A DNA stretch of 64,000 bases from an uncultured Eubacteriales bacterium. GTDB taxonomy: Bacteria; Bacillota; Clostridia; Lachnospirales; JAISER01. Positions 5,275 through 62,939 of this stretch are shown piece after piece (positions within the stretch are counted from its first letter, which is position 1; every line of letters begins with the position of its first letter). The stretch lies in the NCBI GenBank assembly GCA_964545475.1, contig CAZJGG010000008.1, forward strand, positions 666 to 64,665, in the 5' to 3' direction. The notes beneath the pieces are model-generated. The model did not search any database. It saw only the letters and a list, made by a program, of their open reading frames with translations, and was not told the DNA's origin. The translations under genes and the position numbers were made by a program.

Positions 5275-6357
5275 ATGAAAAAGTTCAAAAATACTTTTAT
5301 AGCTGTCGGTGCAACAGTAGTTGCTGCTTCTATGTTATTATCTGCTTGCGGAAGCTCTGCCAGCACACCAGCTTCCGGCAGCACAGATGCTTCCGGAGAA
5401 TTAAAAATTGAGGTTATTGCAAAAGGCTTTCAACATGATTTTTGGAAAGCGGTTGCTATCGGCGCAGACAAAGCCGGAAAAGAATTTGGCGCAAAGGTGA
5501 ATTTTGTTGGCCCAGAGGGCGAAGGCGCTATTCAATCACAGGTTGAAATGATTAACAATGCAATAAACAAAAATCCTAGTGCAATATGTCTTGCTTCTTT
5601 GGATACTAATGCGGCAATTGATGCTATTAATAAAGCAAAAAATGCTAATATTCCAATAATCGGTTTCGACTCAGGCGTGCCGGATGCACCGGAAGGGGCA
5701 ATACATGCTAACGCCTCTACAGATAACTATGCAGCAGGTGCTCTTGCAGCTGAAAAGCTTTACGAAGGGCTTAATGGTAAAATCTCCTCTGCTTCCGATG
5801 CTGTACGCATTGGCGTAGTTTCACAGGAAGCTAATTCACAATCAATTACACAGCGTACATCAGGTTTTATTGATAAAATGATTTCTCTTATCGGCGGAGA
5901 TGTTGCGGTTATTGGTCATGACAAATTTGCCAATAATGTTTCTGACAGTAAAGTTACTATTGAAGTTAGAATACCGGCAGAAATTACTGATGCCGCAGGT
6001 AAAACCGAAGCCCAGGCGCTTCTTGAAAAGTCAGATTTAATTGCTATTTACGGCTCTAATGAATTTGCCGCAAAAGCAATTATTAACGCTAACGAAGGTA
6101 TTTCAGGCGGAAGAATCGGCGCTGACAAAGTGTTGGCGGTAGGCTTTGATGCAGGTGCTTTACAGCTTGATGCCATTTCAAACAAACTGTTTTACGGAAG
6201 CGTAACTCAAGACCCTGTAGCTATCGGCTATCAGGCGGTTAAACTGGCAATTGCTGCAGCAAAAGGCGAATCAGTTGCCGATGTTGACACAGGCGCACAG
6301 TGGTACAACGCCGACAATATGAACGACGAAAACATTAAACCATTGCTCTATAAATAA
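5275..6357 (+). CDS. Sugar ABC transporter substrate-binding lipoprotein (periplasmic-binding-protein type I)
   Basis: AAGAGG lies 7 nt before ATG 5275. It has a signal peptide with lipobox LLSAC-G and an alternating alpha/beta PBP-like sequence (IGFDSG, GFDAG). Confidence 0.88.
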   Translation: MKKFKNTFIAVGATVVAASMLLSACGSSASTPASGSTDASGELKIEVIAKGFQHDFWKAVAIGADKAGKEFGAKVNFVGPEGEGAIQSQVEMINNAINKNPSAICLASLDTNAAIDAINKAKNANIPIIGFDSGVPDAPEGAIHANASTDNYAAGALAAEKLYEGLNGKISSASDAVRIGVVSQEANSQSITQRTSGFIDKMISLIGGDVAVIGHDKFANNVSDSKVTIEVRIPAEITDAAGKTEAQALLEKSDLIAIYGSNEFAAKAIINANEGISGGRIGADKVLAVGFDAGALQLDAISNKLFYGSVTQDPVAIGYQAVKLAIAAAKGESVADVDTGAQWYNADNMNDENIKPLLYK

Positions 6358-6374
6358 AAAATTAGTTAGTTTTT

Positions 6375-6398
6375 TAGAGCAATTTGCAAAAAAACTAT
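6375..6398 (+). repeat. Mini-derivative or footprint of the 103-bp element (both termini, no interior)
   Basis: TAGAGCAATTTG is directly joined to CAAAaaaaCTAT. In the full element the ends are TAGAGCAATTTG...CAAATAGCTATA. Confidence 0.5.
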
Positions 6399-6434
6399 CA
6401 AATCGGTTAATGTGATTTGTTAATAAAATTTCTG

Positions 6435-6476
6435 AAAAAGCATCAAGGAAAACGGAAAATCCTTGATGCTTTTATT
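6435..6476 (+). terminator. Rho-independent terminator of the fucose/ABC operon
   Basis: An 11-bp stem AGCATCAAGGA / TCCTTGATGCT (6439-6449 / 6460-6470) is followed by TTTATT. Confidence 0.8.
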
Positions 6477-6501
6477 ACGTTTTTTTGATATAATTTTTAT
6501 A

Positions 6502-6604
6502 TAGAGCAATTTGACAAAACATTGACAGGTGTGGAGCGGAAACAGCAAACGTTTCACCGCTGTTTTCGCGAACATAGCTGTTTATGTTTTTGCAAATAGC
6601 TATA
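6502..6604 (+). mobile_element. 103-bp hairpin MITE-like element, copy 1 (most diverged, 96/103 versus copy 2)
   Basis: It has the same termini and architecture as the copies at 7226, 60375 and 62837, and is flanked by TA on both ends. Confidence 0.8.
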
Positions 6605-6739
6605 CCTTTTTAATTTAGAACAGCATCAGCCGCTTTTTCAGTCGGCAGAGCATTTTTAGAACCTGTGTTCAATAAGCTGTTGCCCGAATTTGAAATATTA
6701 TATTGACCTTATATTTTTTGTTTTTTGCTTTATTTTAAC

Positions 6740-6896
6740 GTGAGTTCGACGAAGTCGAAAAGCCGCTTTAGCGGCTTAATTGCGGAGCAATTCTCATGTT
6801 ATGAGCGACAATCTACGGCGGTTTTTGCCGCAAATGGTGCGAATATAGTCAAAGTTCGATGAAAATTATATTTTTTATAATTTTCGTCGAACTCAC
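6740..6896. repeat. 157-bp unit closed by a perfect 14-bp inverted repeat, with several internal hairpins
   Basis: GTGAGTTCGACGAA (6740-6753) is the exact reverse complement of TTCGTCGAACTCAC (6883-6896). Internal palindromes are AAGCCGC-ttta-GCGGCTT, CTCAT-gtt-ATGAG and CGGC-ggttttt-GCCG. Confidence 0.6.
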
Positions 6897-6942
6897 ATTA
6901 TTTTCCTATATTTTGACGGTATAATAGAATTAGAAACAGGAG

Positions 6943-7808
6943 GTGCGCAGTGAAAAAACAAAATTATTATTTGCAGTATTTTTGCTCTTAACATTATTAT
7001 TTTTATTTGATGTAGATTTATCCAATAAGGATTACGGCTCATGTCTGCCCACAAATGTTATAGTTCATTGGCAGGAATTTGAAAATTCTTCATTCCCAGT
7101 TGTTGCCTCGTGTGAAAACGAGGATACATATTTATATGGGTGAAAAGAATTTGATAAAGTTATTGTAAGGCATAAAGATGTTTTTCAAGCCTTTGATTGG
7201 TATTACACAACGCCAAGAAGATTTTTAGAGCAATTTGACAAAACATTAACAGGTGTGGAGCAGGAACAGCAAACGTTTCACCGCTGTTCCTGAGAACATA
7301 GCTGTTTATGTTTTTGCAAATAGCTATACCCCAAATGAAAGTGTGTGATATTGATGGAGACGGTGCAGACGAAATTGCTGTAAGCATGAATATGGGTTCA
7401 GGAACAGGCATAAGCATTTATGAGCTTCATATACTTGAAATTTTAAATGATAGGTTTATTGACAATAAATTTTTGTTAGAACCAGGAAGCGATTTATCTG
7501 CTTTAGGCATTGACTTTAAAATTACAAAGGAAAACGATAAAACATTTTTAACCCTCTATAATAATTCGGAGTTAGAAGCTGTGCAGGATATTACAGAATA
7601 TGGGTTAACTGAAAATGATGTTAAATTTTCATATGGTTACATTGTGGAATTTAATATTTTGGAAAACGGAGAAATTGAAATGAATGTGGCCGTTGGTCTT
7701 GATACTGTAAGTGAAGCTACGATTATTTATCTTTTTGATGTAAAAGCTTCAATTAAATATGAAAAAGACGGTGGGTTTTCATTTAAAGTTAAGTCAATAA
7801 CAGAGTAA
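6943..7808 (+). pseudogene. Inactivated paralog of the 7881-8630 gene (in-frame TGA at 7141 plus a 101-bp element insertion)
   Basis: The ORF fragments 6943-7143 and 7308-7808 are together colinear with the 249-aa protein encoded at 7881-8630 (EDTYLYG, MKV.D.DGDG..EIA, YELHILEI, KDGGFSFKV). They are interrupted by a stop codon and by the repeat at 7226-7328. Confidence 0.8.
7226..7328 (+). mobile_element. 103-bp hairpin MITE-like element, copy 2 (inserted in a coding sequence at a TA)
   Basis: It differs from copy 3 at 1 of 103 positions. Removing the element plus one TA restores the host reading frame. Confidence 0.85.
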
Positions 7809-8686: not shown

Positions 8687-10138
8687 TTATTGCGTAACCT
8701 TAGCAATATCTTTAGCAAACTGTTTTTTTTCATCAAGGTTGGACTGTCTTGCAATCATAATTCTTTGGGCCTGAGGAGAACCAGCTCCGTGCATTGATTC
8801 CGTTTTGTAGCCGACAGCCGCTGTGCCTAAAGTTAAGTTTTCAATAAGCCTTAAAATTCTCATTCTTTGCCCTGCGGATACTCCGTTTGCGCCTTTTAAG
8901 TATTTTTCAAGATAATGGGCGATTTCTTCGTTTTTAAAGTCTTTTTCAGAAGGTGCAGTTACGAAGAGCCCACCGGCAATGTCTTCCGCAAGACGGGCGA
9001 TTTCGTAAGGGTAGCGGGTTACGTTTTGTTTGCAGACGTTAGCCAAAAGCAAATCGATTATGTAATTGCCGGAAGCGGTTTTAGAGCCTTGGCAAGAACA
9101 GCCTATGCCGCAAGCGTATAAAGTTTCATTAAGGTGTGTCATTTCAATAATTTTATCTTTAACGTGGCTTGCCTTTGAAACTCCGCTGTAATCAGCCGCA
9201 ACAGCTGTTGCGCCGATTAATACATCACCAACGCCCACTTTACAACCACCGTAGCTCTGTCTGTGGTAGCCGGCGAATCTTTCAACCATCATTCCGGCAA
9301 ATTCAGTTTCGCCGTTTAAGAAAATTCTTTCGTTGGGAACAAAAACATTGTCGAAAATAACAACTGCTTCCATGCCGCCGAACTCGCTGTTGCCAACGTC
9401 AATTTCAGAACATTCAAGTTTTCTTGTGTCGCAGGATTGTCTTCCTACTATTATAATAATACCTTTTGTATCTACAGGAACTGCAAAAGATACGGCGTAG
9501 TCTTTATCTTCCGGTGTAAGAGAAATTGTAGGCATAACTAAAACTTCATGAGAGTTGCAAATGCCTGTTTGGTGAACTTTTGCGCCGTTAACTACGATAC
9601 CATCTTCACGTCTTTCAACGATTCTTAAAAACAAATCCGGGTCAGCCTGTTTGTGAGGAGGAAGCCCTCTGTCGCCTTTAGGGTCTGTCATTGCGCCGTC
9701 TACTGTTAAGTCGTTTTTCTGAACGTTCTTCATAAATTCATTAAATCTTTCGTGATACTTTGTGCCTTTAGCCTGGTCAACCTCATAAGTAGTGCTGAAA
9801 ACGGAGTTAAAAGCATCAAGACCTACACATCTTTGAAAGCAAGAACCAGTTTTTTGCCCAAGCATACGTTGCATTTTAACTTTGTTAACTAAATCTTCAG
9901 TGCTGTGGTGAATATGGGTAAAGCGGTTAATTTTTTCCCCTGTGTAATGGGAACTAACAACCATTAAATCCTGATATTCCGGGTTGTGTGCAAGGCAGTA
10001 AGTGAGCCTAACGGAATTTAAAGATGGCATAAGTATTGGGCTTTCCGTTGGGTTGCTAATTTTTTCCCCCATTAAGTACATATTAAAATTTATCTTTTTA
10101 ATACTTTCAATATATTGCTCGCCTGTCATTAAAGGCAT
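8687..10138 (-). CDS. abfD: 4-hydroxybutyryl-CoA dehydratase / vinylacetyl-CoA delta-isomerase
   Basis: AAGGAG lies 7 nt before ATG 10138. The protein is colinear with Clostridium aminobutyricum AbfD (MTGEQYIESI, KVKMQRMLGQKTGSCFQRCVGLDAFN, MTDPKGDRGL, ERFAGYHRQSYGGCKVGVGD, HGAGSPQAQRIMIARQ). Confidence 0.9.
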   Translation of the reverse strand: MPLMTGEQYIESIKKINFNMYLMGEKISNPTESPILMPSLNSVRLTYCLAHNPEYQDLMVVSSHYTGEKINRFTHIHHSTEDLVNKVKMQRMLGQKTGSCFQRCVGLDAFNSVFSTTYEVDQAKGTKYHERFNEFMKNVQKNDLTVDGAMTDPKGDRGLPPHKQADPDLFLRIVERREDGIVVNGAKVHQTGICNSHEVLVMPTISLTPEDKDYAVSFAVPVDTKGIIIIVGRQSCDTRKLECSEIDVGNSEFGGMEAVVIFDNVFVPNERIFLNGETEFAGMMVERFAGYHRQSYGGCKVGVGDVLIGATAVAADYSGVSKASHVKDKIIEMTHLNETLYACGIGCSCQGSKTASGNYIIDLLLANVCKQNVTRYPYEIARLAEDIAGGLFVTAPSEKDFKNEEIAHYLEKYLKGANGVSAGQRMRILRLIENLTLGTAAVGYKTESMHGAGSPQAQRIMIARQSNLDEKKQFAKDIAKVTQ

Positions 10139-60374: not shown

Positions 60375-60477
60375 TAGAGCAATTTGACAAAACATTAACA
60401 GGTGTGGAGCAGGAACAGCAAACGATTCACCGCTGTTCCTGAGAACATAGCTGTTTATGTTTTTGCAAATAGCTATA
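60375..60477 (+). mobile_element. 103-bp hairpin MITE-like element, copy 3
   Basis: It is 102/103 identical to copy 2. The only difference is at loop position 51. Confidence 0.85.
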
Positions 60478-62836: not shown

Positions 62837-62939
62837 TAGAGCAATTTGACAAAACATTGACAGGTGTGGAGCAGGAACAGCAAACGTTTCACCGCTGTCC
62901 CTACGAACATAGCTGTTTATGTTTTTGCAAATAGCTATA
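62837..62939 (+). mobile_element. 103-bp hairpin MITE-like element, copy 4 (99/103 versus copy 2, stem partly decayed)
   Basis: It has the same termini. Three substitutions in the 3' arm of the apical stem are not compensated. Confidence 0.8.

Follow-up and report, generated by a model that had tools for sequence, protein, structure and literature searches.

The palindromic repeat at positions 6502-6604 of a 64,000-nt stretch of DNA from an uncultured Eubacteriales bacterium raises the question of whether its hairpin is maintained by selection on one folded strand, and at what level such selection would act. The stretch (the window; G000:C8:666-64665, where G, C and L numbers designate genomes, contigs and loci) belongs to a draft genome of 3.05 Mb with 36.7% G+C in 148 contigs. 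The repeat is an element of 103 nt, non-coding and without a reading frame of its own, whose arms pair from end to end. An initial annotation of the window had attributed paired substitutions in the stem to selection on the structure of one strand; the observation was confirmed, and its interpretation received partial support. The apical hairpin is under constraint as a one-strand fold, and this constraint is confined to the central 38 nt. The copies in the window, and the parts of copy 1, are as follows.

6502-6604, plus strand: copy 1 of the 103-nt palindromic repeat (G000:C8:7167-7269), subtype GCGGAAACAGC/GCTGTTTTCGC with a G38.T65 wobble.
6502-6533, plus strand: 5' outer arm of copy 1 (element positions 1-32), behaving as a strand-symmetric inverted repeat with the 3' arm.
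6534-6571, plus strand: conserved 38-nt core of copy 1, from GAGC to GCGA (positions 33-70).
6534-6535 with 6570-6572, plus strand: tandem G.A internal loop of the copy 1 core.
6536-6546 with 6559-6569, plus strand: apical stem of the copy 1 core.
6547-6558, plus strand: loop of the copy 1 core, AAACGTTTCACC.
6573-6604, plus strand: 3' outer arm of copy 1 (positions 72-103).
7226-7328, plus strand: copy 2, subtype GCAGGAACAGC/GCTGTTCCTGA, with its core at 7258-7295.
60375-60477, plus strand: copy 3, sharing the subtype of copy 2 and carrying the loop variant A51, with its core at 60407-60444.
62837-62939, plus strand: copy 4, with its core at 62869-62906 and two A.C mismatches on the plus strand that are G.U wobbles on the minus strand.

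RNA minimum free energy folding gave a single long imperfect hairpin for each of the four copies, with energies of -43.1, -42.7, -42.7 and -35.7 kcal/mol for copies 1 to 4 and z-scores of -5.0 to -8.3 relative to dinucleotide shuffles. The coordinates and folds agree with the initial annotation, which had described four full copies in the same orientation, each forming such a hairpin. Its pairing scheme held for the long hairpin but not in detail: positions 1-3 and 101-103 are unpaired in the predicted fold, and the apical stem, described as 10 bp, comprises 11 bp in most genomic copies, G35 pairing with C68 as well. Comparison of copies 1 and 2 gave exactly seven differing positions (23, 37, 39, 64, 65, 66 and 68), five of which are, as had been reported, paired changes of the apical stem in copy 1, with A37:T66 replaced by G:C, G39:C64 by A:T and G38:C65 by G:T (window positions 6538, 6540 and 6565-6567). 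Opposite T81 lies position 23, with G in the first and fourth copies and A in the other two. Copy 4 had been considered decayed through uncompensated changes. Its disrupting changes, A40.C63 and C36.A67, are A.C on the plus strand but G.U on the minus strand, and the minus strand folds marginally better, at -36.9 compared to -35.7 kcal/mol. Because of this the copies of the window vote for one strand each way, and the argument that their G:T pairs identify the plus strand as the folded species is lost.

Covariation was measured in an alignment of 42 sequences, consisting of 38 distinct copies from this genome and four from genome G028. Paired cells amounted to 95.4%, compared to 92.5 ± 0.2% in shuffled alignments, and 12 pairs contained double changes compared to 5.3 ± 1.4; none of 500 shuffles reached 12, and slid controls gave 2-5. 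Paired stem substitutions therefore exceed chance, a test that the annotation had itself proposed for a larger alignment. Across 39 independent loci the apical stem occurred in discrete, fully paired types: GCGGAAACAGC/GCTGTTTCCGC at six loci, GCAGGAACAGC/GCTGTTCCTGC at five and, with A68, at three more, together with GCAGAAACAGC/GCTGTTTCTGC and GTGGAAACAGC/GCTGTTTCCAC. The types AGG/CCT, AGA/TCT and GGA/TCC are connected through G.T intermediates, and pair 38:65 displays the whole series from G:C through G.T (three loci) to A:T (one locus). The consensus pair G30.T74 is itself a wobble. Rare variants, present in fewer than three independent loci, comprised 21 A.C, 13 G.T, 18 other mismatches and 2 compensated changes, so that the strand argument drawn from G:T pairs also fails when only these are counted. 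Variants in at least three independent loci comprised 28 cells of compensated Watson-Crick pairs, 26 of G.T, 4 of A.C and 4 of G.A. The contrast between the rare and the common classes is suggestive only, and would mean that mutation supplies G.T and A.C equally while the copies that went on to multiply pair on the plus strand.

Relatives were obtained with a covariance model of the whole element (R1), which was searched in 150 other genomes of the order and gave full-length matches in eight: 21 in G028, nine in G031, eight in G006 and between one and three each in G129, G084, G056, G123 and G032. A model of the core only (R2) gave no match in 150 genomes drawn mostly from other orders of the class. 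The core pattern was present in 82 stretches of metagenome contigs, almost all of them belonging to a single sample series (Ga0123355). A pattern scan of genome contigs returned few records, among which Clostridiales bacterium Rs511_bin10 carries real copies; the others, one Clostridia metagenome-assembled genome apart, look like chance matches. No match to the element was found in a plasmid collection searched in distant mode or in viral contigs.

The element was 102-104 nt long in all sets of relatives, and the core measured 38 nt in all eight families compared. The core is laid out as GAGC, a stem of 11-12 bp, the loop AACGNTTCA(A/C) and GCGA, with an A-run (R-R-A-A-A) on the 5' side of the stem and a T-run (T-T-T-Y-Y) on the 3' side. 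Mean identity between families was 0.82 in the core and 0.44 in the arms, a difference that the search pattern enlarges. Between families the arms, and in many cases the termini, are almost wholly different, and the arms nevertheless stay complementary. In a cross-lineage MAFFT alignment that was not fitted to structure, 24 of the 29 pairs given by RNAalifold contained double changes. Alignment of the core gave 85.2% paired cells compared to 65.6 ± 1.6% in shuffles, and a covariation score of 0.484 compared to 0.168 ± 0.021 that none of 500 shuffles reached, with slid controls at 0.02-0.15.

The strand signature of this fold was seen in the 12-bp apical stem of 44 distinct metagenome cores, which contained 479 Watson-Crick, 38 G.T, 1 A.C and 10 other cells. 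At one stem position G.T was the commonest state, with 27 G.T, 9 G:C, 6 A:T and 0 A.C. In the sets derived from the models the apical G.U:A.C counts were 16:0 in G028, 5:0 in G006 and 18:5 in this genome, and the nine A.C calls in G031 apparently come from a predicted 2-bp helix within the loop. The outer arms of the same metagenome elements gave 54 G.U and 64 A.C, with no strand bias. Arms and core have the same orientation, replication and transcription context, so strand-biased mutation cannot explain a bias that is confined to the core. The proposed structural selection on one strand thus holds for the apical hairpin once relatives are added, where G.T far exceeds A.C, and does not extend to the outer arms. 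The internal loop under the stem is a tandem G.A/A.G (5'-GA / 5'-GA(A)) in six of nine genome-lineage consensuses and in all metagenome families, which on the other strand reads C.T/T.C, and purine-purine mismatches equalled or outnumbered pyrimidine-pyrimidine mismatches in every lineage. The sequence of the apical loop is also kept in most lineages. Folding of the whole element preferred the plus strand in seven of nine genomes and in 48 of 76 metagenome copies.

The level at which this constraint acts was approached through orientation and through changes private to single copies. Relative to co-directional flanking genes, taken from crude calls of open reading frames (ORFs) on draft assemblies, 15 copies had the same and 9 the opposite orientation in this genome, and the metagenome loci gave 17:9; the pooled counts of 32:18 are not significant. 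Orientation relative to GC skew, used as a proxy for replication, was 16:17, and numerous copies are flanked by genes that diverge or converge. The single orientation seen in the window is therefore a local accident. The initial annotation had itself named such a mixture as evidence against its reading, and the mixture counts against a role in host transcripts. Private substitutions were most frequent in the core, at 1.05 per site for the apical stem and 0.83 for the loop, compared to 0.50 for the outer arms. This lack of depletion indicates that resident copies are not protecting the core, and that the constraint is visible only among lineages that have multiplied. Such a constraint argues for a cis-acting role in the propagation of the element itself, and against a function for the host as a 3' untranslated region (3'-UTR), terminator or non-coding RNA.

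The account of the element that follows is put forward with even confidence. [quoted passage not shown] The first module would be the two outer arms of ~32 nt, ordinary inverted repeats that remain complementary without strand preference, and the second the central 38 nt, kept as a plus strand fold in which G.T is tolerated and A.C is not. The constraint would act when new copies are made, the core serving as a cis-acting mobilisation structure that is read on a folded single strand. In our opinion this folded species is somewhat likelier to be single-stranded DNA than RNA. Part of the apparent compensation may be produced mechanically by templated copying between the arms, with the variants that keep the fold probably going on to multiply. 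Hairpin repeats are common in bacteria, and RNA-like covariation within them can rarely be assigned to a folded molecule as opposed to the mechanics of a DNA palindrome. The internal contrast of this family separates the two, as the arms behave as a strand-symmetric palindrome and the centre as a one-strand fold that matters only in multiplying lineages.

Several features of a bacterial MITE are present in the element, which is a short non-coding inverted repeat with many dispersed copies and with both filled and empty sites; no cognate autonomous insertion sequence (IS) with the same ends was found. BLAST located 105 loci in the genome, with unrelated flanks, of which 48 span at least 90 of the 103 nt and the remaining ~55 are truncated, internally deleted or mini copies. 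Positions 17-69 are missing from about 13 mini copies, each 50 nt long, through a deletion between two AACAT direct repeats; these minis include C34:24455, C66:4800, C43:665, C14:16411, C7:56455, C11:25775, C49:13266 and C1:54260 of this genome. Since both A97 and T97 variants occur among them, the deletion may have arisen more than once, or minis may be mobile in the absence of the core.

Several observations weigh against the two-module account. The mini copies at different loci would leave the core dispensable for movement, unless the deletion is recurrent. Counted once per type, the variants of the apical stem in this genome comprise 8 of G.T and 9 of A.C. Members of one family share descent and are not independent, which inflates the cell counts and overstates their significance. 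The core pattern fixes 22 of 38 positions and the models include the core, so that ascertainment favours core conservation. For G031 and G129 the minus strand gives the slightly better fold of the whole element. A mobilising enzyme also failed to appear: genome G006, with six near-identical copies, gave no match to DDE_3, Y1_Tnp, DDE_Tnp_1, rve or DDE_Tnp_4; pairs of element ends 0.1-5 kb apart in the assembly revealed no longer element, and none of those 0.4-5 kb apart enclosed a transposase; and no recurrent transposase was present among 728 clustered ORFs adjoining 80 metagenome copies. Across five element-bearing genomes the same Pfam panel yielded no family common to all. These transposase absences rest on draft assemblies and do not prove absence. 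Among the additional "end" motifs, most were 13-mers that match by chance or belonged to other small repeats.

One alternative, which we regard as unlikely, dispenses with a folded-strand function altogether; templated correction from arm to arm, and the requirement that a single transposase accept both ends, would keep the palindrome, and the asymmetric centre would be merely ancestral. Tracts of arm-to-arm conversion, in both directions, were seen directly. Several copies have lost the asymmetric internal loop by one multi-base replacement that made one arm the exact complement of the other: GCGAAC became GCTCCAC in C100:83 and C74:1 of this genome, and in G028 the 5' arm served as template for the 3' arm at L056 and L058, and the 3' arm for the 5' arm at L065. 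The minis at C49:13266, C1:54260 and C6:3964 are perfect palindromes, including the normally asymmetric termini. Quasipalindrome mutagenesis, through hairpin-templated repair or replication template switching, produces templated events of this type and would account for the multi-base replacements. Such tracts imply intrastrand pairing at the DNA level and mean that double "compensatory" changes are possible without selection. Some of the compensation is accordingly a product of copying between arms and not of selection. The unbiased outer arms, and the equal frequency with which G.T and A.C types arise in this genome, also agree with a process that is blind to strand. Correction should however erase the G.A loop and the G.T pairs, and both persist in most lineages that are otherwise turned over; the corrected copies are rare singletons, and the multiplied forms keep the G.A loop. 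A G.T:A.C count of 38:1 confined to the core is unexpected from a strand-symmetric process, and the loop sequence is kept where the arms are at 44% identity.

The insertion sites raise a second alternative, similarly improbable, in which the element is a MITE of IS630/Tc1 type that moves as double-stranded DNA by means of a TA-duplicating DDE transposase and whose potential to form a hairpin is incidental. Two further features of the window bear on insertion and on the shortened copies.

6375-6399, plus strand: degenerate mini form (TAGAGCAATTTGCAAAAAAACTATC), with the left terminus fused to a diverged right terminus.
6760-6778, minus strand: empty-site paralogue, the hairpin aagccgc-TAAA-gcggctt within another repeat unit.

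At the filled sites C80:1433 and C3:77605 of this genome the unit of window 6760-6778 carries the element, with a gain of 101 nt beside the loop TA that equals 99 nt plus TA, and the copy at C19:31555 lies likewise within the loop of a terminator-like hairpin. Most copies have TA on both sides, and once the flanking dinucleotides are left off, the ends match as inverted repeats over positions 3-101, which fits a TA duplication. The variable 5' T speaks otherwise. On the 5' side many copies have the dinucleotide AA, CA, TG or AG, and TA is retained on the 3' side, so that the two often disagree, and the variable T is inherited within one subfamily (AAGAGC at unrelated loci) and travels with it. 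Target-site duplications of 3-4 bp were not found, the 5' and 3' flanks being mismatched, and neither flank contained a conserved target oligonucleotide. PF13358 (DDE_3, IS630 type) was absent from G000, G006 and G031, and no host DDE_3 transposase with matching inverted repeats was found. An IS630-family element does occur in G129, at the two positions given here.

L097:890-2025 (G129:C25): IS630-family element whose two frames, 923-1465 and 1462-2010, overlap and may be linked by a frameshift.
L095:1400-2215 (G129:C54): second IS630 copy, 5'-truncated exactly where a 104-nt hairpin element abuts.

The ends of this IS630-family element, TACCAATCCCTAA, are unrelated to those of the 103-nt element, and the neighbouring hairpin copy sits in the truncated IS, so it was rejected as a partner. 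Cut-and-paste of double-stranded DNA would also leave the one-strand constraint of the centre unexplained. Among the closest described cases is RUP of Streptococcus pneumoniae, associated with IS630-Spn1, which like the present element is ~100 nt long with TA on both flanks and inverted-repeat ends. The 103-nt element differs from RUP in that no IS630 partner with matching ends was found, the 5' flanking base is variable, and the centre is conserved and constrained on one strand.

Variation at the extreme ends was also pronounced. In the metagenome loci L139-L218 (for example L152, L161, L167, L190 and L214) the 5' positions 3-4 read CA, TT, CT, AT, AA or TA and vary even among copies with hardly any other difference; the 3' end varies far less. 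The six terminal positions of the copies in this genome carried 1.83 private changes per site compared to a mean of 0.74. This terminal hypervariability may reflect an asymmetric joining step.

A role as RNA at the level of the host is less probable again and is considered unlikely for this element. The sense hairpin on the plus strand would act as a 3'-UTR stabiliser, terminator, processing site or small RNA under selection at each locus; of these roles the initial annotation had suggested a 3'-UTR stabiliser or terminator and a non-coding RNA. Tolerance of G.U, which is the commonest state at one stem position in 27 of 44 cores, and a tandem G.A loop are both typical of RNA helices, and the pooled orientations of 32:18 show a weak excess of co-orientation with flanking genes. 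The bcr1 repeat of the Bacillus cereus group is a precedent, being transcribed with fold-keeping compensatory changes at the RNA level (PMC3184786). The undepleted private mutations of the core nevertheless disfavour a stabiliser, terminator or non-coding RNA at resident loci, as do the two common orientations and the many copies between divergent or convergent genes. Copy 1 itself lies downstream of a terminator-like hairpin. A consensus scan called no terminator or promoter in the element, and Rfam gave nothing at gathering score and, in E-value mode, only weak matches to generic hairpins (miRNA precursors). An intrinsic terminator was rejected on the basis of a loop of 10-12 nt, longer than the 3-8 nt usual beside the G+C-rich stem of such terminators, and a T-run that lies inside the stem, paired to the A-run, with no unpaired U-tract after it; an internal promoter was rejected as TTGACA at positions 9-14 has no -10 partner. 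Readings of the core as a k-turn, T-loop, cre, CodY box or LexA box were unfit in spacing or bases when compared by eye with the consensus motifs. A protein-coding reading was set aside since the open frame has no start and copies occur in both orientations.

A more specific form of the mobilisation account, held with equally low confidence, is that the core is the recognition or priming hairpin of an unrecognised folded single-stranded DNA mobility of small palindromic elements in Clostridia. The enzyme would then lie outside the common transposase families, and the interchangeable arms would be family-specific ends, in analogy with the hairpins of HUH transposons or the single-strand origins of plasmids. 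The nearest functional analogy is ssoA of Firmicutes rolling-circle plasmids, a long imperfect palindrome that acts on one strand as folded single-stranded DNA and has a conserved terminal-loop motif (PMC5703833, PMC4598088). It is defined by two motifs within a palindrome of ~160 nt: RSB (TTATGCCGAGAAAATTT), which lies in the stem, and CS-6 (TAGCGT), which lies in the terminal loop (PMC4598088). Only CCGAG..AAATT of the core loosely resembles RSB. The plus strand loop is AACGNTTCA and does not contain CS-6, and the element, unlike ssoA, is ~103 nt long, chromosomal and dispersed, with no adjoining rep gene. If the centre is a cis mobilisation signal, it would offer a way to track down the enzyme responsible for their movement in gut Clostridia, and the family suggests simple mutant designs, with the stem broken, the stem compensated, and G.T set against A.C.

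Mobilisation as a REPIN (a hairpin-forming doublet of REPs) by a RAYT (REP-associated tyrosine transposase), or as a palindromic element of IS200/IS605 type, is largely refuted and was judged highly improbable. A RAYT-like gene is present in this genome, and REPINs are hairpins of ~100 nt with frequent compensatory changes (PMC3116915). Its REPs (GTAGGGAACG...CGTTCCC) are however unrelated to the element, and G006, G031 and G129 carry the element without a match to PF01797 (Y1_Tnp). IS200/IS605-type palindromic elements (PATEs) insert 3' of a fixed tetra- or pentanucleotide, with no duplication and in an orientation that follows the replication direction; here no flank motif or conserved target oligonucleotide was found, and the orientation count of 16:17 shows no bias by the replication proxy. 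The gene and its duplicate are located as follows.

G000:C9:28-516 and 750-1133 (locus L091): RAYT-like gene encoding 162 aa and, after it, a truncated duplicate in tandem.

The RAYT-like gene matched NF047646 with 75.2 bits, below the cut-off of 80, and E = 4.7e-21. The motif GTAGGGAACGACCCCTGTGTCGTTCC occurs both within its reading frame and upstream, and similar GTAGGG(A/G)ACG hairpins adjoin several 103-nt copies elsewhere in the genome. In a REP-RAYT system, REP units with a conserved 5' GTAG flank the RAYT gene and co-occur with it; the repeats flanking the gene of this genome are those given above, and the 103-nt element is not among them.

The REPINs of Pseudomonas and enterobacteria, which are mobilised by RAYTs, resemble the element as dispersed non-coding hairpins of ~100 nt with compensatory changes. 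In REPINs these changes affect both sides of the hairpin, and selection has been argued to act on the replicating unit and not through a host function (PMC3116915). In a REPIN the ends (REPs, with 5' GTAG) are conserved and the centre varies, whereas the 103-nt element has a conserved centre; the RAYT-associated REPs of this genome form another sequence family, and three of the element-bearing genomes have no Y1 transposase match. The bcr1, ERIC and Neisseria Correia elements, which are MITE-like, are likewise small, intergenic, multi-copy palindromic repeats. bcr1 has 5-bp direct repeats, whereas the 103-nt element has TA on both sides of most copies, with 5' and 3' dinucleotides that often disagree. 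Compensatory changes in bacterial hairpin repeats are already known from REPINs and bcr1, and what differs here is a one-strand centre common to families with unrelated arms. To our knowledge no such combination has been described, and a literature look-up found none.

Other repeats were noted around the element. A further family, with ends TTAACGTGAGTTCGACGAAG, occurs at window 6740-6896, at C1:54300 and C2:47000 of this genome and at many other loci; these ends presumably resemble the inner part of Tn3-family inverted repeats, a likeness that serves as a lead only. The repeats are nested, the 103-nt element having inserted into the loop of one internal hairpin of the TTAACGTGAGTTCGACGAAG-ended family at C80, C3 and C133. 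Window 6853-6893 is an 18-bp AT-rich perfect hairpin with a T-rich tail inside the 157-bp repeat unit, and is the sole terminator-like call of the consensus scan in 6300-7450. Other small palindromic families occur at C64:6866-6950, with a counterpart at 9045 on the opposite strand, at C141:2640 and at C6:50950. They have the terminal words AGAGCAATTT/ATAGCAATTT in common with the element and different interiors, one being AGAGCAATTTAATTATTTTGGAAAAAACATTGATTAATGCCTCAAGTG...TTAAATTGCTCT, so that ends and centres seem to combine modularly. In G006 a 150-nt version of the local element (L076, G006:C25:31372-31521) has a 47-nt insertion inside the apical loop, which contains a hairpin of its own (TTTTTGACGC..GCGTCAAAAA).

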